Source of the DNA: a phage
Length of the DNA: 64,000 nucleotides
Reading direction: 5' to 3' (one strand)
Sequence record: PZ357121.2
Shown here: in pieces, positions 3,229 to 63,138 of the stretch
Numbering within the stretch: the first letter of the stretch is position 1
Layout of the letters: each line of letters begins with the position of its first letter
Notes under the pieces: generated by a model
What the model saw: the letters and a program-made list of their open reading frames with translations, nothing else
The model's database searches: none
Told to the model about the DNA's origin: nothing
Program-made: the position numbers and the translations under genes

Positions 3229-4554
3229 TCAAAGTGCCTCCAAGTCTTTAGTGTACTCTGTCACAACATCAGTAGACTTCCAATACTCATTTTCTTCTTT
3301 CTTAGCTTTAGCTTCTTCCGCTAGTTTACGTGCTTCGTCAGAAGTGATATGGAAGATGTTAAGGCCTACCAGTTTATCGACATGTTCTTTATACATTTCG
3401 ATTTGTGCTAGCTCTTCAGTCAAAGCTTTACGAGTCTTGCCCTGAATCACAATTTCGCCACTGATAACTTTTTTGATGAAGTGTGCCTTAGCAAAAGCCA
3501 GTTTAAATGCTTTTTCAGATTCAAGGATTTTGTTGTCAATACGTTTCTGAACGTAAGTCTTACGGACTTCAACAAAATCTTTGATTAAGTCCACTACATT
3601 ATCATAGACTGCTAATTTACCCTTTTCATTAATCACTGTGATGTTTTGTGAACGACGTTCGATGAGACTAAAATCTTTCATGATTTTTTCATGACGTAGC
3701 TCTTCATCATCAGGAAGCGAGTACTCTTTACGGAACTTCACCTTAAACCCAAAGCCGTGTTCACCGCAATCATCTTCCCATGAGATTAGACCTTTGTCTT
3801 CCAACGGGTCAAGAACCTTACTCACATACGTTTCACGGTCAAATTTATATGGGATTTCAGTTATCTGCATTTGAGTGCGAGATGTGAACTTATATGTTCC
3901 GTGAATCTCATAACGCCCATCAACTTCATGTACTTCACCACGGAATTCTGGGAATTCAACTTTTGGCTTAGTAACATTTTTACCTTGAAGAGCTTGTAAT
4001 ACAGCCTTTTTGACTGATTTAAAACTATGAGGCAGAATATTTGTTGCGTAACCGGTTGCAATACCAGAGACACCATTCAAAAGAACTGTCGGAATAATAG
4101 GAAGATAGAATTTTGGTGGAATGTGTTCTTTATCTTCATGAGCTGGAGCATATTCAGTATCTTTATATACGTTATAGAAATTTTTACTTACACGAGCAAA
4201 AATATAACGAGATGCTGCAGCTTTTTGGACTGTTCTAGAACCAAAGTTGCCTTGGCCATCTAACAGTGGATAGTTGTTGTTCCATGTGTTAGCCATCAAT
4301 GCACCTGCATCTTGTGCAGAGATTTCACCATGGTGATAACCTAAATCTGCAACACCGCCTGCAATTGACGCAAGTTTATGAAATTTTTCTTTATTACCAC
4401 GAGCCAAATCTAACGCACGATGAACCACAAAACGTTGAACCGGCTTAAATCCATCAATCATGTTTGGGATTGCACGGTTTTCAACGGTGTACATCGCATA
4501 TGCTAAGGCTTCGTTATCAATAATACTTTTTAGATTACGAGAATTCAATTGCAT
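3229..4554 (-). CDS. 52: DNA topoisomerase II medium subunit gp52 (441 aa)
   Basis: ATG ORF; GyrA-like N-terminal region; length and sequence match recalled T4 gp52. Confidence 0.9.
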   Translation of the reverse strand: MQLNSRNLKSIIDNEALAYAMYTVENRAIPNMIDGFKPVQRFVVHRALDLARGNKEKFHKLASIAGGVADLGYHHGEISAQDAGALMANTWNNNYPLLDGQGNFGSRTVQKAAASRYIFARVSKNFYNVYKDTEYAPAHEDKEHIPPKFYLPIIPTVLLNGVSGIATGYATNILPHSFKSVKKAVLQALQGKNVTKPKVEFPEFRGEVHEVDGRYEIHGTYKFTSRTQMQITEIPYKFDRETYVSKVLDPLEDKGLISWEDDCGEHGFGFKVKFRKEYSLPDDEELRHEKIMKDFSLIERRSQNITVINEKGKLAVYDNVVDLIKDFVEVRKTYVQKRIDNKILESEKAFKLAFAKAHFIKKVISGEIVIQGKTRKALTEELAQIEMYKEHVDKLVGLNIFHITSDEARKLAEEAKAKKEENEYWKSTDVVTEYTKDLEAL

Positions 4555-4558
4555 ATTT

Positions 4559-4699
4559 TCACCATATTAATGAACGAATAACCATTATAACATCTGAAAT
4601 GAAAAGCACTACTTGGATTAGCCCAAACATCACACCGTAGTACAGAACCGTAAGCAAAAACAAGAGCCCGAAGGCTCCTGCTAAGATTTTCTTAATCAT
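4559..4699 (-). CDS. putative small hydrophobic peptide (46 aa)
   Basis: ATG overlaps TGA of upstream small ORF; hydrophobic; ends 4 nt before gene 52 ATG; ORF contains a terminator-like hairpin so may be non-coding. Confidence 0.3.
   Translation of the reverse strand: MIKKILAGAFGLLFLLTVLYYGVMFGLIQVVLFISDVIMVIRSLIW
4664..4677 (-). terminator. terminator-like hairpin (GAGCC-CGAA-GGCTC + T-rich tail)
   Basis: Stem-loop followed on - strand by TTGTTTTTGCTT; lies inside the 46-aa ORF. Confidence 0.35.
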
Positions 4700-4845
4700 T
4701 GCTCGCCTTTTAATACGTTAAGAAGAGCTAAGACCGCTAAGGTACCTTGTGACACAGCCTGTTGAAATACTGTTGTTTCGCCTGTAACTAAAGTGTTAAC
4801 GAATAAAAACGACCAACACAGCAATGCAATAATCCATGCTACCAT
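4696..4845 (-). CDS. small membrane protein (49 aa; position of T4 ac/stp)
   Basis: ATG ORF missed by 60-aa cutoff; hydrophobic N-terminus MVAWIIALLCWSFLF; lies between ndd and 52 like T4 ac. Confidence 0.4.
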   Translation of the reverse strand: MVAWIIALLCWSFLFVNTLVTGETTVFQQAVSQGTLAVLALLNVLKGEQ

Positions 4846-4871
4846 TTTAATTACCTCAAAAATAAATTAAA

Positions 4872-4889
4872 GGCCTAACTTAATAGGCC
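4872..4889 (-). terminator. rho-independent terminator downstream of ndd
   Basis: GGCCTA-ACTTAA-TAGGCC hairpin followed on - strand by TTTAATTTATTTTT. Confidence 0.5.
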
Positions 4890-4897
4890 CGTATAAA

Positions 4898-5344
4898 TTA
4901 GTAACTCTGCAGAACGAATTTGAAATTATCTGCCAGAAGACGGTTCATTTCAGTGAGTGTTTGATATTCTGATGTATGATTGCGAGTGAATGCCAGAGCC
5001 AATTGTCCTTTACCATAACCAGTAGTCAGGGGTTTCATGTTCTTAGCTGCAACAAAGATTACATCATATTCAATATTGTTAGTGCCCATAGTACGGGCTA
5101 GTTGCGAACGGCCTTGACGAATGTGAGAAAGAATTGCATCCAACCCTTGTTTAGAACGTTGACGTCCTACAAAGAATCGTGCTGCTACTTGTCGCCAGTC
5201 AGATGAACCTTTAACAAAGAAGTAAAAACCTTCACGAGAACGAAACTCTTTAGAAACTTCAGAACCGTATTCGCCATTACGAACTACTGCAACAACTTCA
5301 CCGCCAACTGCCAGAAGGTCTTTACGAGTTAAATATTTGGACAT
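4898..5344 (-). CDS. ndd: nucleoid disruption protein Ndd (148 aa)
   Basis: ATG ORF; ...[22 protein letters not shown]...[28 protein letters not shown]...[12 protein letters not shown] matches recalled T4 Ndd. Confidence 0.85.
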
Positions 5345-5678: not shown

Positions 5679-5870
5679 AATTAAATTACATTAAAATATG
5701 TCAAAGCCAACCATGTTCCAGTGAACGAACATGCGATGTAAAACCCCGTATCACAAATTGTTCTTAGTACAATAAGAAGTGCATTTTTCATAAGTACCTC
5801 AATACAATTGAAAATATTATACAAATCATAGGGATACTAAGCAACCATATTCCGATCCACATTTTAGAGC

Positions 5871-6695: not shown

Positions 6696-6983
6696 TCATT
6701 CGACAGGATAAATGTCGGAAGACTCTTCAGTCTCAACAATCCCAAGTTCGTCTTTACCATAGATACCTCTGATGTGTAGTTCGCCAAAATAAATGCGGTC
6801 ACCTTCTTCAAGATATTCTGCATCTACCGGTGGGATTTCAATAACAACTTCGTCGCATTCTAACCAGCCGTAGTGTGCATCACCAGGATGTTTTACCAAT
6901 TTAGCACAATAAACTGATTTACACTTATGATGACCACGAAGATTAGCAATTTTGGATTCTGACACGTCAAATGGATGAATCAT
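6696..6983 (-). CDS. hypothetical protein (95 aa)
   Basis: ATG at 6983 with AGGGG SD; upstream part of track ORF is encoded by the rIIB terminator hairpin. Confidence 0.5.
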   Translation of the reverse strand: MIHPFDVSESKIANLRGHHKCKSVYCAKLVKHPGDAHYGWLECDEVVIEIPPVDAEYLEEGDRIYFGELHIRGIYGKDELGIVETEESSDIYPVE

Positions 6984-15840: not shown

Positions 15841-16338
15841 TTAAGCTTTATGAGGAGACACATAGCGAGTGATTTCAGATTCTTTAACAACTCGGAAGTC
15901 ACCTAAGAATACGATATTGTATAACTTTTCACCATCTTCAACCCATTGGTCACTAATGAAGCCACACATAGTATCAGTTTTGCTTGGATAACCGTATTCG
16001 TCGATGTAATCAAATTCTTTATCGGTTATAAATTCAACGCCTTTGCAAAGAGCCCATTTGAACTGTGTAGTAGGCTCAACGATATCGCTTGAAGCAAAGT
16101 GTGCAGGTGCAACTTCTTCGCTTGAAGCAAATTGGACTCGTATATGTTTTTCCAGGAATTTAGGACTTACGTAAGCATACTGGGCATCTTGTCCGCCAAA
16201 ACTGGGCATGATTCGAACTTTAACTTCTTTAATACGTCCCATGCCATTTGTGCGAAGTCCGACAACTTCAACCAGACGACCTGCGGCTTTAGACCGGGAT
16301 GCAGTTGATACACGCTTAATTTCACCAATAGTAATCAT
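15841..16338 (-). CDS. hypothetical protein (165 aa), paralog of adjacent gene
   Basis: ATG ORF; tandem paralog of 15412-15831. Confidence 0.65.
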   Translation of the reverse strand: MITIGEIKRVSTASRSKAAGRLVEVVGLRTNGMGRIKEVKVRIMPSFGGQDAQYAYVSPKFLEKHIRVQFASSEEVAPAHFASSDIVEPTTQFKWALCKGVEFITDKEFDYIDEYGYPSKTDTMCGFISDQWVEDGEKLYNIVFLGDFRVVKESEITRYVSPHKA

Positions 16339-16369: not shown

Positions 16370-16399
16370 ATTATACTCCATCCATCCTTGGATGTAAAC
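16370..16399 (-). promoter_or_regulatory. early promoter (-35 GTTTAC, 18 nt, -10 TATAAT) with CCAAGGATGG spacer motif
   Basis: Minus strand GTTTACATCCAAGGATGGATGGAGTATAAT. Confidence 0.55.
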
Positions 16400-16404
16400 T
16401 GATT

Positions 16405-17082
16405 TTATCGCTGTTTTACACTTAACGGGTCAGGATTCTCAGGGACATCTTCAAGGCCAAGCGCATAACGCTGAGCATATTTTAACATCAAAATATCTTT
16501 AGCACAATCATGAATACTATCATGGGCAACGAATCCTTTTAGCGTACCCATCGGTAATGGACACATACTTAATCCTCGTGTCAACGAGTAAGCTTCGATT
16601 GCCGTACGAATATCGCGTTGAGCCCAGAATTTAACCGGTTCTAATTTATCAGTATCAATCTCTGGTTCAAGAACACCTTCATCACGATAGAGGTCACGAA
16701 TCAAATCGACCAAGATCGGGAAGTCAAAGCTCATACCACGGCACCACATCTGTGATTTCCATTGGTCAACTTTATTAGCTCGGCAATAGTCTAAAAAGAT
16801 TTTAATGCCTTCAAGCGTAGTGACGTCGTCTTCAGACGGAGCCAAGTTTTTACGTGCTTCAGCCGATTGTTCTTTCCACCATTTCATAGTGGATTTAGCG
16901 AAAACTCGCTTCCCTTTCTGAGAAGCTAAATTAAATTTAATTCGCTTACCTCGTTGAACAAGTTCTTCAAATGATTCAACAACTTCAGGGTCGGAATTAT
17001 ATGCAATAACCGCAAGGTCAATAACAGCCGCTTTTGATGTATTGCCGAATGTTTCAAAATCTATAATAACATCAGTGCTCAT
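16405..17082 (-). CDS. dexA: exonuclease A, DEDD 3'-5' exonuclease (225 aa)
   Basis: ATG ORF; N-terminal DFETFG exonuclease motif; adjacent to dda as in T4. Confidence 0.85.
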   Translation of the reverse strand: MSTDVIIDFETFGNTSKAAVIDLAVIAYNSDPEVVESFEELVQRGKRIKFNLASQKGKRVFAKSTMKWWKEQSAEARKNLAPSEDDVTTLEGIKIFLDYCRANKVDQWKSQMWCRGMSFDFPILVDLIRDLYRDEGVLEPEIDTDKLEPVKFWAQRDIRTAIEAYSLTRGLSMCPLPMGTLKGFVAHDSIHDCAKDILMLKYAQRYALGLEDVPENPDPLSVKQR

Positions 17083-55270: not shown

Positions 55271-55808
55271 ACTCATACGCCTGGAATGCATCGTATACGT
55301 CTTTTTCTGTTTTAGATTGGGCATAATTCAACGCATCAGCGATTTGCCATTTTTCTGCATCCTCAATATGTTTTGCATAGGTGCGTTTAACATAAGGAGA
55401 AAGAACTTTATCGACATTCGCAAATGTAGTTCCACCATACTGATGCGAAGCAACTTGTGCAGTAATTTGTGCCATAATTGCAGTAGCAACACCAATAGAT
55501 TTAGGCGTTTCAATTTGAGCATTGCCGAGCTTAAATCCGTTTTCAAGCATTCCTTTTAAATCTACTAAACAGCAATTAGTAAAAGGCAATGATATACTGT
55601 AATCTAAATCATGAAAATGAATTAATCCAACATTATGGGCATTTACAATATGACTTGGAAGAATACGACAAGCGATATGTTTAGAAACAATACCGGCCAT
55701 TAAATCTCTTTTTGTTGGAAAGACGCGAGAATCTTTGTTGGCGTTTTCTGTATTTAATTCTTTATCTTTATTTGAAATAAAATTTAAAACATCTTTTTCT
55801 AAAGACAT
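55271..55808 (-). CDS. nrdD: anaerobic ribonucleotide reductase NrdD, exon 1
   Basis: ATG ORF; MSLEKDVLNF...NENANKDSRVFPTKRDLMAGIVSKHIA...CCLVDLKGMLENGFKLGNAQIETPKSIGVATAIMAQI... matches recalled T4 NrdD N-terminus; frame ends in intron stop. Confidence 0.85.
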
Positions 55809-56620
55809 AATTCTAATTTATCCTTTTGAAATTCTTCGTCTAAATATGGGTTCCAACCCATTTTAAACCTTTTGATGAAATTATCAATTCTAAATTTCGG
55901 TAAGTTTAAATCCGCAAAAATAGATGATTTACTTTTAAAATCTGGACTTAAATAATCATATAAAATTTCTGCGTATTTTAACCATAATATACAAGTACCA
56001 GATTTAATTGCTCTCGGAGTTTTCCAAGGTTTTACACCATACATCGGATTTCCACTTCCTTTATGCCTGATAGAAGATGAAATTCCAATTTTAATTTTAG
56101 CTTCCTTTGTATGCGAAAATCCACGATGTGGATTTTCTTTCCAGTATTTTTTAGAAGCTTCTGATATTTTCTTTCTGGCTAAATTAGTATGATGCTTTCC
56201 ATAAAATCCATGATTTTTGCCTTTATTACGATTTCTTTTAATCATGGTTATTGATTGCTTTTCTCTAGTTTCTTTAGAAGGAGAAATACCATATGTCGTA
56301 AATTGGCCATCAGCATATGCTAAATTAAAATACTCTTTATTCCATACATCTTTTTCTATATTCTTTTGAAATTCAGCTTCAATGCTAGTTATTTGTTCAT
56401 CTCCGACTAATTGAAAATATAATATCTCAACTTTCGGCGTTTCTTTCAATAAGGCTTTTTGAAATTCGGAAGATGACGAAGACGAATAATAAAATTTACC
56501 ATTTTTATCAATAATATTCGTTCCGTCAAAAGTGCAATTGGTTTTACTTCCAATGTAATAATATGGCGGGGTTTTAGCATTAATTCTACTAATAAACGAT
56601 AGTTTATATACTACATTCAT
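55799..56620 (-). CDS. free-standing GIY-YIG homing endonuclease, Seg-like (273 aa)
   Basis: ATG ORF; N-terminal YYYIGSKT...(GIY-YIG-type) and repeated basic helix (NUMOD-like) segments; inserted between 49 and nrdD. Confidence 0.7.
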   Translation of the reverse strand: MNVVYKLSFISRINAKTPPYYYIGSKTNCTFDGTNIIDKNGKFYYSSSSSSEFQKALLKETPKVEILYFQLVGDEQITSIEAEFQKNIEKDVWNKEYFNLAYADGQFTTYGISPSKETREKQSITMIKRNRNKGKNHGFYGKHHTNLARKKISEASKKYWKENPHRGFSHTKEAKIKIGISSSIRHKGSGNPMYGVKPWKTPRAIKSGTCILWLKYAEILYDYLSPDFKSKSSIFADLNLPKFRIDNFIKRFKMGWNPYLDEEFQKDKLELCL

Positions 56621-58542: not shown

Positions 58543-58783
58543 GGTCAAATCCACCAATGTGACTTCCGTCAGGAGCAAACACTTGAGGCATCGTCAATCC
58601 AACATGTGTTTCACGTCCAAGCTTAGCCAGAAGCTCAGCAATTTTTTCTTCATCGAATACACCTTTTTCTGGCATAACATTAATGAATTCGAACGGCTGT
58701 TTCTTAACAGTCAGCAATCGTTTCGCATTATCACAATAAATGCATTTATGAATAGTAGAGTCATACCCGTACACTTTAAACAT
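58520..58783 (-). CDS. nrdC: glutaredoxin NrdC (87 aa)
   Basis: ATG at 58783 (MFKVYGYDSTIHKCIYCDNAKRLL...GGFDQLREYFK) matches recalled T4 NrdC thioredoxin; track ORF has a 6-codon extension. Confidence 0.9.
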   Translation of the reverse strand: MFKVYGYDSTIHKCIYCDNAKRLLTVKKQPFEFINVMPEKGVFDEEKIAELLAKLGRETHVGLTMPQVFAPDGSHIGGFDQLREYFK

Positions 58784-59189
58784 TATTTTTCCTTTCATCA
58801 ATTAAATATGCAATGCCAAATACAATACATGTAATAAAACCTGTGATACAGATAGAAACCAACAACACTGTACCAAAGAACCAAATCAAGTTATCTTTAG
58901 TAGTTTGTTTGATATCCATCTCACGAATTTCTATAGCTATCGTATCACCTTTATTCAGAAGCGTATAAAACGATGGCGATACACGCCTGTCAAAAACTCG
59001 TCCTTGCTCATCTTTATAGACTGCAATAAATTCTAATTTAGAATATTTTCCTGTAGATTGACCTGAGATTAGCTCTACTACCTCCACAGGAATTACTTTA
59101 GTTTCCATGTAAGTATTCTGGCTGTTCCAAATGAATGGAATGATGGCAAAAACTAAAGCTGCAATAAAGCAACGAAGGCTATATCTCAT
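58776..59189 (-). CDS. membrane protein (137 aa, N- and C-terminal TM segments)
   Basis: ATG ORF; hydrophobic termini. Confidence 0.6.
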   Translation of the reverse strand: MRYSLRCFIAALVFAIIPFIWNSQNTYMETKVIPVEVVELISGQSTGKYSKLEFIAVYKDEQGRVFDRRVSPSFYTLLNKGDTIAIEIREMDIKQTTKDNLIWFFGTVLLVSICITGFITCIVFGIAYLIDERKNNV

Positions 59190-59494
59190 TATAATGTTCT
59201 CTCAAATTTGTGGAAGCATTTACGGCATTTCAATTTCAAGTTATCAGTGGTCCAGTTAACCAGTTGGACTTGGATAGTTCCACATTCCGGACATGGATGT
59301 TTTGCTGCCGATTTGGCAGCATTTTCACGTCGTTCAACCATTTTCATGATTTCGTTCCATGCCGGAGGAACGAACTCTTCTTCACTGTGGATTTTATCTC
59401 GCTGAACAAATTCAATCTTTGAACTATCGTCAATAAACTTAACCAAGCCGTGATTAGTGCTCATATCAATATCCTCTAAAAGACGTAGTTTCAT
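59189..59494 (-). CDS. zinc-ribbon protein (101 aa)
   Basis: ATG ORF; C-terminal CPECG...CRKC. Confidence 0.6.
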   Translation of the reverse strand: MKLRLLEDIDMSTNHGLVKFIDDSSKIEFVQRDKIHSEEEFVPPAWNEIMKMVERRENAAKSAAKHPCPECGTIQVQLVNWTTDNLKLKCRKCFHKFERTL

Positions 59495-60444
59495 TATAAA
59501 ACCTCAATGGCATTTCGTAAACCGTCCGCTTTCGCATTCAGAGCTTTTAACGATTTAGTTTGTTCTGCAATCTGGGCTTCGACTTCTTTCAGACGAGATT
59601 TGAGATATTCGCGTTCTTCTCTTAAGTTATCAACTTTTTCTGCTTTAGGCTCTTTAATAGGCTTAGGCTTATACTCGTTAGGGTTCTTCAGCTTAATTTG
59701 AATACGAGAACTGAATAACATTGAACCGTTATCTTCGGTTTCATCATACATTTCTACCACGTCCATGATTCTTAACATCATGCGAAGTTTATAAGACAGC
59801 GAACGAATGGTTTTGTTGCGCTTATTAATTTCTTCGGCTTTCATGGTACCGAGATTACGTGAGTAGTAATAAGGAACCTGGATATCAATTGTCAATGATG
59901 CGTTACCATTACCGGTTGGTTTGAATACTGCAGTAACCCAATCTTTAACATGAACTTTATTTGTACGACCATCGCCGCCTGTGAATAATTTACGTGAATG
60001 TTTAAAAAGCATATTCACTTGGTTATTGAATTCACAAGCAAATTTATCGGCAAATTTAGTTTCAGGAATGGTAGATAACCAATCAGCCAAATGAGTCTTT
60101 TTAACATCGTTAATAATAGTAAATTCAACTAAATCAGTTTTAGGTGTCACAGATTTAATAAAGCTCGGCTTCATAAAGTTTTTAATGTTATCACGAGCTA
60201 CAGTAGAAGATAATAAACGAGAACGTTTGAACCATTGAAGCAGTGTCCCTAATGAATGAGAATACGCATTCTGAGTATCTTTACAGATATGATTTTCTTG
60301 GCCTGTGTATGTACCAAAATCGCGAAGAATACCACTTACTACAACTCGGTGTGGAACATCAAATCCTAATGAACCAGAAGCACGTTGGGCATGAACGTTA
60401 GCGATAAGACCTGCAAAATAATCAATGTAATGTGAACGTGTCAT
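59494..60444 (-). CDS. hypothetical protein with C-terminal coiled coil (316 aa)
   Basis: ATG ORF; heptad-rich charged C-terminus; own upstream promoter. Confidence 0.65.
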   Translation of the reverse strand: MTRSHYIDYFAGLIANVHAQRASGSLGFDVPHRVVVSGILRDFGTYTGQENHICKDTQNAYSHSLGTLLQWFKRSRLLSSTVARDNIKNFMKPSFIKSVTPKTDLVEFTIINDVKKTHLADWLSTIPETKFADKFACEFNNQVNMLFKHSRKLFTGGDGRTNKVHVKDWVTAVFKPTGNGNASLTIDIQVPYYYSRNLGTMKAEEINKRNKTIRSLSYKLRMMLRIMDVVEMYDETEDNGSMLFSSRIQIKLKNPNEYKPKPIKEPKAEKVDNLREEREYLKSRLKEVEAQIAEQTKSLKALNAKADGLRNAIEVL

Positions 60445-60472
60445 AATATTTTCCTCTCGTTAAGATAGAAAG

Positions 60473-60502
60473 ATTATACTCCAACCGTCCTTGGTTGTAA
60501 AC
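60473..60502 (-). promoter_or_regulatory. early promoter (-35 GTTTAC, 18 nt, -10 TATAAT) with CCAAGGACGG spacer motif
   Basis: Minus strand GTTTACAACCAAGGACGGTTGGAGTATAAT. Confidence 0.55.
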
Positions 60503-60506
60503 TGAT

Positions 60507-61439
60507 TTATGATTTTAATGCATTCATTGCGTTAAAAAGTTTAGAGTACTGCAACTGGAGCTTGGTAACTACTTGTTGAGCATCACGAAGCTTAGCTTGT
60601 GCTTTGTCAAGTTCAACAGACAGTTGGTCCACAGTGGCTTTGATTTGATTATAATAGTAATCTTCTGCAGGAAGAAGACCGTTAGAGATTTCCAGTTTAG
60701 ACGACGGTGTGCCGTTAAACATAACAGGTTGTGCTGAAGCTGAATTAATCTTACCGATAGTCGGGGCGACAATAATTGACGCTTCGAACGTTGCATTTTC
60801 CTTTTTAAGATTTTTATAATATTCAGAGTCTTTGTGCCACCATGGCGCAGGAACCTTTTTACCAATAGATACACGAGCCTGGATAGCGATATGGCCCTTA
60901 TTCTTGATAACGTCGATAATATTAAGCTCACGAGAATAAATTGCTTTAATCTGGTGAATATTATCACCTAACACTTCCAACGCTTGGTGGAATACACGAG
61001 CAACGTTATCATTCTTAGGTTTATACGTAAGAGTGAACTCGTTCTCACTGATAACCATGATTTCCAACTTATCGTAAGTATATTTCAAATGTTTCATGTT
61101 AATTGCTTGAGGACGAATACGAGAAGCAATGGCCATCAGATTGTTAAGGTTATTCCGGAACTGCTTAGCGAAATATTGTCCTTCACCACCAATACAAAAA
61201 TTACGAAGTTTCTGTTTGGCTAATAAACGGCTGAACTCACCATTTTTAATGAACTCTTTAACGGGGGTGTTAGTAACGCATTCAAATTGAGTAAACTTAC
61301 GAGAAGTAATTCCATAATACGAACAGATTTCCTCAATCTCTTCAGGAGTCTTTACAGGCATACGGATAGGATTAGGACCTGGGGTATATGCGTTCGAGGT
61401 AAATTCTTTGATAAGTTCTCTACGTGTAATAAAAGCCAT
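60507..61439 (-). CDS. hypothetical protein with C-terminal coiled coil (310 aa)
   Basis: ATG ORF; C-terminal heptad region. Confidence 0.65.
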   Translation of the reverse strand: MAFITRRELIKEFTSNAYTPGPNPIRMPVKTPEEIEEICSYYGITSRKFTQFECVTNTPVKEFIKNGEFSRLLAKQKLRNFCIGGEGQYFAKQFRNNLNNLMAIASRIRPQAINMKHLKYTYDKLEIMVISENEFTLTYKPKNDNVARVFHQALEVLGDNIHQIKAIYSRELNIIDVIKNKGHIAIQARVSIGKKVPAPWWHKDSEYYKNLKKENATFEASIIVAPTIGKINSASAQPVMFNGTPSSKLEISNGLLPAEDYYYNQIKATVDQLSVELDKAQAKLRDAQQVVTKLQLQYSKLFNAMNALKS

Positions 61440-61465
61440 TTTATATTCCTCATGTTGAAAAATTT

Positions 61466-61494
61466 ATTATACTCCAACCATCCTTGGTTGTACA
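61466..61494 (-). promoter_or_regulatory. early promoter (-35 TGTACA, 17 nt, -10 TATAAT) with CCAAGGATGG spacer motif
   Basis: Minus strand TGTACAACCAAGGATGGTTGGAGTATAAT. Confidence 0.55.
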
Positions 61495-62490
61495 TCATTC
61501 CTTAAGAAGTTTTACTACCTGAATAAGATTAGCTCGTTCTGTTTTATTTTTACCGTTTAAGCCTGCTAATCGTGAGATTTCATCGTCAGTCTGTTGAATA
61601 GTTACATTAAGTTCGTTAATCAAAGCTTCAAAGTATTTGATTTGCTCAGCATGTTTTGATTCAAATTTCTGAACTGGAATAACGTCTTGGTTTAGTTCAT
61701 CAATAAGGTCTTTAAGAGCATCTTCTTGGTTGATATCATATTCAACTTCTTTTATTTCTTCAATGAGCTCGTCTTTATATCTAACGTCTTTTAGTCCTGG
61801 TGCTGGTCCTGAAATCTCTTCTTTAGGAGTACAAACATATCCAATACGGTATCCAATGCCGTCTCGCTTGATATCAACTTCGTCAATAAATCCACAATGT
61901 TTAAGACCAGAGCCGATTAGGTCAAAATATCCTTGACGTCGTCCTTCAAACGTTACACGAACTACTAAGACAGTTTTACCTGCAACCTTTTGAAGCTCAC
62001 ATTTATAAAAGTCTGTTGAACCTGAATAACGTGGATGAGTTTTAAAGTTCATCTGACGATCTAGGCCCATTTGTAAGCGTGCTGATACGGCCATAAAACG
62101 TGTTTGGTTCTCGTTAAGATGAGCAACAATCCATTTCAAAGGCATTTTACACTGTTCACGACCGAACAAATCAGTATATCCTAGATTACGCAGAATGTTG
62201 TTAGAGTTAATCATCGACAGAACGTTAAGTTTATTCAGCGCGCTGAAGATTCCATCGGCCATTGATTTTCCGTAACCTTTACACGCTTTAATAAGCGCTC
62301 GCGGTAGATTAGTATAGATTTCAGACGGCATATGAAAATCAAATTTACTAGTCAGTAATTGATGAACTTGGATAGCAATTTGCTCATAATTAAGCGCTCT
62401 GCGATCATTATGGTCTTTAAACCACACTTTAATCTGTGAAGCACATAAACCGTTAATTTCATGTTTTACCGCATCAGATGTAATGCTCAT
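61495..62490 (-). CDS. hypothetical protein with C-terminal coiled coil (331 aa)
   Basis: ATG ORF; C-terminal heptad region. Confidence 0.65.
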   Translation of the reverse strand: MSITSDAVKHEINGLCASQIKVWFKDHNDRRALNYEQIAIQVHQLLTSKFDFHMPSEIYTNLPRALIKACKGYGKSMADGIFSALNKLNVLSMINSNNILRNLGYTDLFGREQCKMPLKWIVAHLNENQTRFMAVSARLQMGLDRQMNFKTHPRYSGSTDFYKCELQKVAGKTVLVVRVTFEGRRQGYFDLIGSGLKHCGFIDEVDIKRDGIGYRIGYVCTPKEEISGPAPGLKDVRYKDELIEEIKEVEYDINQEDALKDLIDELNQDVIPVQKFESKHAEQIKYFEALINELNVTIQQTDDEISRLAGLNGKNKTERANLIQVVKLLKE

Positions 62491-62552
62491 AACTATTTCC
62501 TCAGATTGAATTGGAACTCAAAACCATTATAACCCGTCCTTGGGTAAAGCGT

Positions 62553-63101: not shown

Positions 63102-63130
63102 AGGTCTATAATAACATAACCATAGACCTT
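63102..63130 (-). promoter_or_regulatory. T4-type early promoter (-35 GTTTAC, 17 nt, -10 TATTAT)
   Basis: Minus strand motif then AGACCTATCAACTACTGGAG leader. Confidence 0.6.
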
Positions 63131-63138
63131 GTAAACAA

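Follow-up and report, generated by a model that had tools for sequence, protein, structure and literature searches.

What do three adjacent, similarly sized genes of the nrdC.x region contribute to a T4-like phage, and are their products related to one another? The question is raised by a 64,000-nucleotide stretch of phage DNA (sequence record PZ357121.2; the whole stretch is referred to as the window, and coordinates are window positions unless stated otherwise), whose minus strand carries genes for proteins of 316 (W_316; 59494–60444), 310 (W_310; 60507–61439) and 331 amino acids (W_331; 61495–62490). A first-pass annotation, made from the sequence alone, had placed three open reading frames (ORFs) of exactly these coordinates and sizes here, and had suggested host-takeover or anti-defence functions for them. 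The window comes from an RB69-like phage of the genus Mosigvirus (top megablast match, 98% identity across 4.1 kb), and not from T4 itself. A GAGGA ribosome-binding site lies 7–8 nt 5′ of the ATG of each gene, and the gene-wide ratio of nonsynonymous to synonymous substitution rates (dN/dS), calculated against RB69, moha and two IMG/VR contigs, was 0.08–0.31 (0.08–0.18 for W_316), with similar values for the neighboring genes. These ratios identify the three ORFs as real genes under purifying selection.

Family assignment and common ancestry

Each protein was first assigned to its T4-like family. W_316 is the ortholog of T4 NrdC.3 (family C3), with 57% identity (BLASTP E = 7e-120) and a full-length match to phrog_1435 (E = 7e-104), and its gene adjoins nrdC.2 with a stop/start overlap as that of T4 NrdC.3 does. 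W_310 is an RB69-type NrdC.5 (family C5), 87% identical to the RB69 protein and aligned with the whole of the Pfam model PF23882 (DUF7235; profile positions 1–307 of 307, 373.5 bits against a cut-off of 30, E = 1.2e-111), a model that matched neither W_316 nor W_331. Its identity to T4 NrdC.5 is 24% over 308 amino acids (BLASTP E = 8e-10; hhalign probability 95.6%, E = 1.2e-8). W_331 is an RB69-type NrdC.6 (family C6) in a long form that keeps the C-terminal helix; it is 29% identical to T4 NrdC.6 (BLASTP E = 1.6e-18), matches phrog_2257 (E = 7e-127), and was assigned to PF26899 through cluster representatives at 86–98% identity that carry this family. Pfam and PHROG scans gave no catalytic or otherwise informative annotation for the three proteins, consistent with the earlier remark that they lack a catalytic motif. 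Homologs among structural or housekeeping proteins were not found in Pfam, PHROG, PDB sequence or Foldseek searches, so the objection that the first-pass annotation had itself foreseen did not arise. Many GenBank records label nrdC.2 to nrdC.8, these three genes included, as "thioredoxin", and one T6 record labels the NrdC.5 homolog "tail sheath stabilizer". In the Pfam scan, no thioredoxin or glutaredoxin family was hit by any of the three, and the thioredoxin labels look like error propagation from the gene name nrdC.x.

Pairwise BLASTP among W_316, W_310 and W_331 returned nothing, and the three belong to separate PHROG/Pfam families, as would be expected of unrelated ORFans that happen to share a size and a coiled-coil tail. 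This was the view implicit in the first-pass annotation, which had seen no obvious mutual similarity; the observation held for BLASTP but failed at the profile level, where all three proteins were linked as paralogs. BLAST connects C3 with the NrdC.4 family (C4) at E about 1e-6 (E = 1e-4 for T4 NrdC.4 against W_316) and T4-type C5 with RB69-type C5 at E about 1e-9. Shallow family profiles compared by hhalign connected only C3 with C4 and C5 with C5, and bridging sequences were needed for the wider links. When 1.84 billion representatives were searched exhaustively with HMMER, no more than 13 relatives emerged, among them the bridging group, termed CX (P0031, P0032 and P0034; 337–345 amino acids), which mixes C5-like and C6-like motif variants. 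With its inclusion, hhalign aligned CX with C6 at E = 1.7e-18, CX with C5 at E = 3.7e-7 over 217 columns, and the combined C6 and CX profile with C3/C4 at E = 2.9e-5. When the last 75 residues were cut from every sequence, the combined C5, C6 and CX profile still matched C3/C4 at E = 8.7e-6 over 122 columns, and C3/C4 matched C5 at E = 2.6e-5.

These scores were evaluated against a null of about 150 column shuffles per comparison, against reversed targets, and against the nrdC.10 and nrdC.11 families as controls. Observed profile scores were 32–56, compared with 12–14 for the shuffles (standard deviation about 2.2, maximum 23.1), and no shuffle reached the observed values; the tail-trimmed scores were 32–44, compared with 12–13, and again were reached by none of the approximately 150 shuffles. 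Observed scores thus lie 8–18 standard deviations above the null whether or not the tail is included. Reversed targets scored 10–19, and the nrdC.10/nrdC.11 controls gave E = 0.12 or worse. A MAFFT alignment of the five families from six phages revealed four common features that are colinear across families: a first helix with the motif F.K.g.LS....a...LrNF, a second helix with the motif F...Fr.n...l.a.AsRL..G..r, a Pro-Val/Ile linker element, and a C-terminal helix ending L.nA...LK. As far as sequence statistics allow, the profile scores reject the view that the three are unrelated ORFans; the bridging CX sequences, the colinear motifs and a single-copy state at the syntenic position in Kanagawavirus also speak against it. 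We regard it as scarcely credible, along with the notion that the three are structural or housekeeping proteins, against which stands the loss or pseudogenization of the genes in viable phages. That W_316, W_310 and W_331 are strongly diverged tandem paralogs of one superfamily is well supported by the sequence comparisons.

The superfamily was detected only in T4-like phages (Straboviridae) in these searches. Its member genes are annotated in hundreds of genomes and assigned to DUF and PHROG families, and the link between them appears to be unreported: the searchable literature contained no earlier description of nrdC.3, nrdC.4, nrdC.5 and nrdC.6 as one paralogous, copy-number-variable superfamily, or of its domain map.

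Domain organization and structure models

Each protein appears to begin with a helical N-terminal domain bearing the two helix motifs. A small hairpin-helix-hairpin domain of low conservation comes next, and a variable, disordered linker connects it to a terminal helix or coiled coil. The conserved core, on the minus strand in every case, spans residues 67–163 of W_316 (59956–60246; motifs FKRSRLLSSTVARDNIKNF and FACEFNNQVNMLFKHSRKLFTGGDGR; delimited by alignments, conservation profile and hhalign ranges), residues 60–114 of W_310 (61098–61262; motifs VKEFIKNGEFSRLLAKQKLRNF and FAKQFRNNLNNLMAIASRI), and residues 80–148 of W_331 (62047–62253; motifs IFSALNKLNVLSMINSNNILRNL and IVAHLNENQTRFMAVSARLQMGLDRQMNFK), where it falls within the confidently modeled helical domain. 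The AlphaFold2 model of W_331 (mean pLDDT 72.6) comprises this helical domain (residues 1–145, pLDDT 81–93), a less confident hairpin-helix-hairpin (160–220), a disordered linker (224–277) and a terminal helix (281–330). Secondary-structure elements follow one another in the same order in the W_310 model, a poor one (pLDDT 48) built from an alignment of close relatives only, without C3, C4 or T4-type C5 sequences, and kept out of the fold search. A word-indexed homolog search had retrieved only close relatives of W_310 and W_331, even from a cross-family alignment.

The C-terminal segments, likewise on the minus strand, cover residues from about 270 to 316 of W_316 (59497–59637; heptad score 0.88, reached by 0 of 200 shuffles), residues 257–309 of W_310 (60513–60671; an AlphaFold2 helix; heptad score 0.90, reached by 0 of 200 shuffles), and residues 281–330 of W_331 (61501–61650; AlphaFold2 pLDDT 80–88; heptad score 0.72, reached by 15% of shuffles). 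The three proteins had been described from sequence as ending in charged coiled coils. Heptads are indeed significant in W_316 and W_310 but weak in W_331, while a long terminal helix is modeled for both W_310 and W_331. The tail is clearly charged in W_316 only, where charged residues make up 42% of the last 55 positions compared with 24% of the rest; W_310 shows no enrichment (24% in both). The family alignment profile weakly matched GCN4-type coiled coils in the PDB sequence search (E = 0.004), which we judged to be coiled-coil noise, and nothing else emerged from that search.

Conservation across families is highest in the core helices and has a second peak where the linker ends and the coiled coil begins. 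The second peak would fit an adaptor, in which the conserved tail, besides self-associating, docks all paralogs on one partner (a host protease or chaperone, for instance, or another phage protein) and the variable heads deliver different host targets for degradation or sequestration. Consistent with such an arrangement, the only near-invariant residues across families lie at the extreme C-terminus (L301 in alignment A1, L322 and L329 in alignment A4), and the profile score of CX against C5 rises from 32 to 56 once the tail is included. However, coiled coils align easily through composition, T4 NrdC.6 has been retained despite apparently losing its tail by frameshift, and no partner, degron-like motif or docking motif is known, so that we consider an adaptor role improbable. 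Conservation across families is lacking in the hairpin domain and in the first 60 residues, the obvious candidates for determining specificity.

Structure prediction followed by Foldseek, as proposed in the first-pass annotation, gave no convincing match to a solved fold. The W_331 model retrieved from BFVD C6-like and Kanagawavirus-like proteins as well as relatives from phages of Acinetobacter, Klebsiella and Yersinia; the matches extend the fold to T4-like phages of these three genera, of Pectobacterium and Enterobacter and, weakly, of Aeromonas. All of these proteins are uncharacterized, and no BFVD match was identifiable as C3, C4 or C5. Two weak matches, E1A1X3 and E1A1X4 of Aeromonas phage phiAS5 (E = 0.004 and 0.34), have consecutive UniProt accessions, a hint that tandem pairs of W_331-like folds may exist in distant Straboviridae. 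Against the PDB, a weak resemblance to H-NOX and Bet3-type domains recurred and was taken as a lead only. The top matches were H-NOX domains (E = 0.006–0.12 over about 200–225 columns), and the helix, hairpin, helix, hairpin topology of W_331 residues 129–220 is like that of H-NOX. The globular part could be imagined as a distant H-NOX/V4R/Bet3-like alpha+beta pocket that takes up a small molecule or a lipid and works as a sponge or sensor, not as a protein-protein blocker. The family alignments, however, contain no conserved His or YxSxR-like motif, the hairpin domain is both the least conserved part and modeled at a pLDDT of only 56–76, and the defence protein Dsr1 discussed below is not known to use a small-molecule signal. 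We therefore think ligand binding very improbable.

Promoters, gene neighborhood and array variation

Each of the three genes had been credited with a promoter of its own, which proved correct for two of them. W_316 and W_310 are preceded on the minus strand by good early-type promoters. The sigma-70 cassette of W_316 (60473..60501; TTTACA-17-TATAAT, 11/12 consensus positions) contains ACCAAGGACGGTTGGAGTATAAT and is identical in RB69; that of W_310 (61466..61494; TGTACA-17-TATAAT, 10/12) agrees with it at 22 of the 23 positions of a common block, ACCAAGGAYGGTTGGAGTATAAT, which occurred in none of 100 shuffles of the window. The cassette of W_331 (62526..62548, minus strand), by contrast, has collapsed: TTTACC and TATAAT are only 11 nt apart, as they are in RB69, no usable -35 element lies at 17 nt, and the promoter scan did not call it. 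It is doubtful as a promoter, and transcription of W_331 probably comes by read-through from the nrdC.8 promoter (63135..63108). A related block precedes nrdC.3 and nrdC.4 in T4 and slur04, which fits duplication of promoter-plus-gene units. A further copy with two mismatches, TCCAAGGATGGATGGAGTATAAT, lies far from the nrdC region, on the minus strand at 16370–16392 in the gap between the ORFs at 16405–17082 and 15841–16338.

The repeated early promoters, the location in a hyperplastic region, and the differences in flanking genes between relatives recall the PeSL cassettes of T4-like phages (PMC2839356, PMC4122927). The W_316 cassette matches the PST/T4 PeSL consensus TTTACW-N17-TAYWAT, that of W_310 has one mismatch (TGTACA), and that of W_331 does not match. 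We found no minus-strand terminator-like site in the three intergenic gaps that could represent the G+C-rich PeSL-type stem-loop upstream of the promoters; the sole inverted repeat (CCAA...TTGG) lies inside the promoter spacer. The identification with PeSLs thus holds only halfway, for the promoter consensus but not for the upstream stem-loop.

Gene order follows that of RB69: endonuclease VII, PinA, two small ORFs, the NrdC glutaredoxin, an nrdC.7-like membrane protein, nrdC.2, W_316/W_310/W_331, nrdC.8 and nrdC.9. The flanking genes bear out the earlier placement of the three in the variable nrdC.x accessory region: endonuclease VII, PinA and nrdC glutaredoxin lie to one side, nrdC.8 and nrdC.9 to the other. 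The stop codon of W_316 overlaps by 1 nt the start codon of the nrdC.2-like gene (59189–59494). nrdC.2 encodes a 101-amino-acid protein with CxxC...CxxC zinc-ribbon-like motifs, and the array member adjoining it always overlaps its start, by 1 nt in the window (59492–59496) and by 4 nt in T4, CIP9 and PEi20 (6934–6937 in the T4 locus L001, 5744–5747 in locus L012 and 5747–5750 in locus L013). The recurrence of the overlap, even in phages with a single family member, suggests that the array member and nrdC.2 form a conserved, translationally coupled pair.

The nrdC.7-like membrane protein (58776–59189, 137 amino acids) is 41% identical to T4 NrdC.7 (10902–11303 in L001). In the window, RB69 and moha its gene separates nrdC from nrdC.2; in T4 it lies beyond nrdC.6, a shift in position that is a local rearrangement between the two array types. 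Among Mosigvirus loci the protein is 98.5–100% identical despite a dS of 0.10–0.15. On the minus strand at 55799–56620, a 273-amino-acid ORF with a NUMOD3 motif (E = 6e-7) abuts the endonuclease VII gene, its start overlapping the gp49 stop, and is probably a homing-endonuclease-like gene.

To examine how the array varies among phages, we carried out a census with hidden Markov models of the families. Members are always adjacent, in the order C6-C5-(C4)-C3, and number four in T4 and slur04, three in Mosigvirus, and one in Kanagawavirus, where the single copy occupies the nrdC.3 position and overlaps nrdC.2. A search for related loci based on W_316 retrieved only five close loci, and one based on CX retrieved only Kanagawavirus loci. 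In ACG-C40 (5730–6138 of locus L010), nrdC.3, nrdC.4 and most of nrdC.5 have been lost and nrdC.6 has been kept; the remnants are a C5 fragment of 71 amino acids and 46 codons of nrdC.3, from its 3′ end. In T2, nrdC.4 is divided between two ORFs and nrdC.6 is truncated (2020–2568 and 4001–4940 of locus L007), and one IMG/VR contig likewise has a split nrdC.4. T4 nrdC.6 encodes 275 amino acids (NC_000866; L001 9997–10894), compared with 295 amino acids ending KLIKIVDLLKS in slur04 (1962–2849 of locus L011) and ACG-C40 (4834–5721 of L010), and the DNA just upstream of T4 nrdC.5 still encodes the coiled-coil ending, out of frame with the annotated T4 nrdC.6. From these sequences, T4 nrdC.6 looks like a C-terminal frameshift variant. 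Identities in the phage collection fall into discrete classes: 152 records have a C6 protein at least 95% identical, three at 60–90% and 587 below 60%, and C3 identities form three classes (>90%, 60–80% and <60%). The strongly multimodal distributions suggest whole-allele exchange, not gradual divergence.

A possible role in antagonizing host immune sensors

For one member of the family, published genetics support the suggested anti-defence function: T4 nrdC.5 acts against Dsr1, and W_310 is the positional and sequence homolog of T4 NrdC.5. A T4 clone lacking nrdC.5 fails to plate on ECOR17, or on MG1655 carrying dsr1 from ECOR17; nrdC.5 in trans restores plating of the deletion phage on Dsr1-carrying cells; and T4 deletion clones without nrdC.5 are viable (PMC9391042). 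The tetratricopeptide repeat (TPR) sensor of Dsr1, which is common to Avs7, is reported to be triggered by the late major capsid protein (January 2026 preprint, PMC12803255). A literature search for renamed or new anti-Dsr1 proteins, and for nrdC.3, nrdC.4, nrdC.6 and DUF7235, yielded nothing beyond that study of nrdC.5 (Srikant, Guegler and Laub, eLife 2022; PMC9391042).

W_310 resembles T4 NrdC.5 in occupying the same slot of the array, in aligning over about 300 residues, and in having the two core motifs together with the C-terminal coiled coil; the published study classes T4 nrdC.5 as an early gene (PMC9391042), and W_310 has an early-type promoter. The two differ in that DUF7235/PF23882 and phrog_2351 are built around the RB69-type protein, in the linker and hairpin domain, and in that T4 nrdC.5 lacks a promoter of its own in the preceding gap, whereas W_310 has one. 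More widely, the array is like the T-even anti-defence islands, such as the dmd-tifA-adfA "anti-TA island" (PMC9391042), in comprising early, non-essential, small to medium genes of variable content in a hyperplastic region with an effect on host range; unlike the unrelated inhibitors of that island, the nrdC.3–nrdC.6 members are mutual paralogs. By functional analogy only, the proposed antagonists can be likened to DSAD1, described as a non-enzymatic phage repressor of the defence-associated sirtuin (SIR2-NADase) DSR2 (PMC10981675, PMC11087589, PMC10973363). The activator of DSR2 is the tail tube protein, like the capsid protein a structural protein made late. DSAD1 differs in coming from Bacillus phages and in targeting DSR2 instead of Dsr1, and no paralog array has been described for it. 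It was absent from the PDB matches of the family searches, in which no dedicated DSAD1 comparison was made.

We propose, with roughly even confidence, that the three genes form a tandem array whose products act early in infection as oligomeric antagonists of host immune sensors, without being enzymes. The antagonists would be made early, from early-type promoters, and would self-associate through the C-terminal coiled coil, while the globular part would bind and neutralize the sensors without enzymatic action, disabling them before late phage trigger proteins such as the major capsid protein appear. W_310 would be the likeliest antagonist of the Dsr1 type, Dsr1 being a SIR2-NADase defence protein, and its sisters W_316 and W_331 would counter different sensor variants or different systems. 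Binding, oligomerization and target identity we infer for all three proteins. The locus has the traits of the anti-defence class, with early-type promoters, the ACG-C40 deletion, the T2 pseudogenes and the viable T4 nrdC.5 deletions.

Several points weigh against this proposal. W_310 is only 24% identical to T4 NrdC.5, and the published assay used the T4 allele, not the RB69-type one; the low identity makes the Dsr1 specificity of W_310 uncertain, and anti-Dsr1 activity may not be conserved in it. Published functional support consists of genetics on NrdC.5, and the rescue on Dsr1 hosts could be indirect. The common origin is weakest at the C3/C4 branch, its links to the other groups having moderate profile scores with hhalign probabilities of 52–83%; the coiled-coil signal of W_331 is weak; and the AlphaFold2 model of W_310 is poor (mean pLDDT 48, from 10 sequences). 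Finally, gene-wide positive selection was looked for among close relatives and not found, dN/dS of 0.08–0.31 being well below 1, so that these relatives carry no gene-wide arms-race signature.

The same ratios are those of ordinary accessory genes and would suit early modulators of host takeover or physiology with no relation to immunity, directed for example at host transcription, nucleoid or metabolic proteins, in which case rescue on Dsr1 hosts would be an indirect effect, for instance of altered or delayed production of the trigger or of altered NAD metabolism. The genes are early-expressed, non-essential and devoid of catalytic motifs, and the nrdC.5 evidence is genetic, all of which would suit such modulators too. 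However, rescue by a single gene in trans on a host carrying Dsr1 on a plasmid is most simply antagonism, and host-range and anti-defence loci typically show copy-number change, pseudogenization and the replacement of discrete alleles. Takeover functions of this kind are in our view unlikely.

If the genes are antagonists of immune sensors, the array may, more speculatively, be an expandable, cassette-exchanging repertoire of modular antagonists across Straboviridae, in which a conserved helical scaffold and a coiled-coil tail for oligomerization or docking carry a fast-changing head. Each paralog or allele class would be tuned to a different repeat-type sensor (Dsr1, and possibly the TPR-sharing Avs7 type), and array size and allele combination would help to set host range; we offer this wider picture tentatively, as one we would not yet bet on.

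nrdC.5 is the only gene of the region with an assigned role. If nrdC.3, nrdC.4 and nrdC.6 are its paralogs, one isolated genetic observation becomes a family-level hypothesis. The analysis also flags a widespread "thioredoxin" annotation error, and the domain map, by separating scaffold, variable part and oligomerization tail, can guide domain swaps and truncations. Given such paralogy, each phage would carry three or four candidate antagonists, and the family would be represented in hundreds of sequenced T-even-like phages, which are used as models and in therapy.

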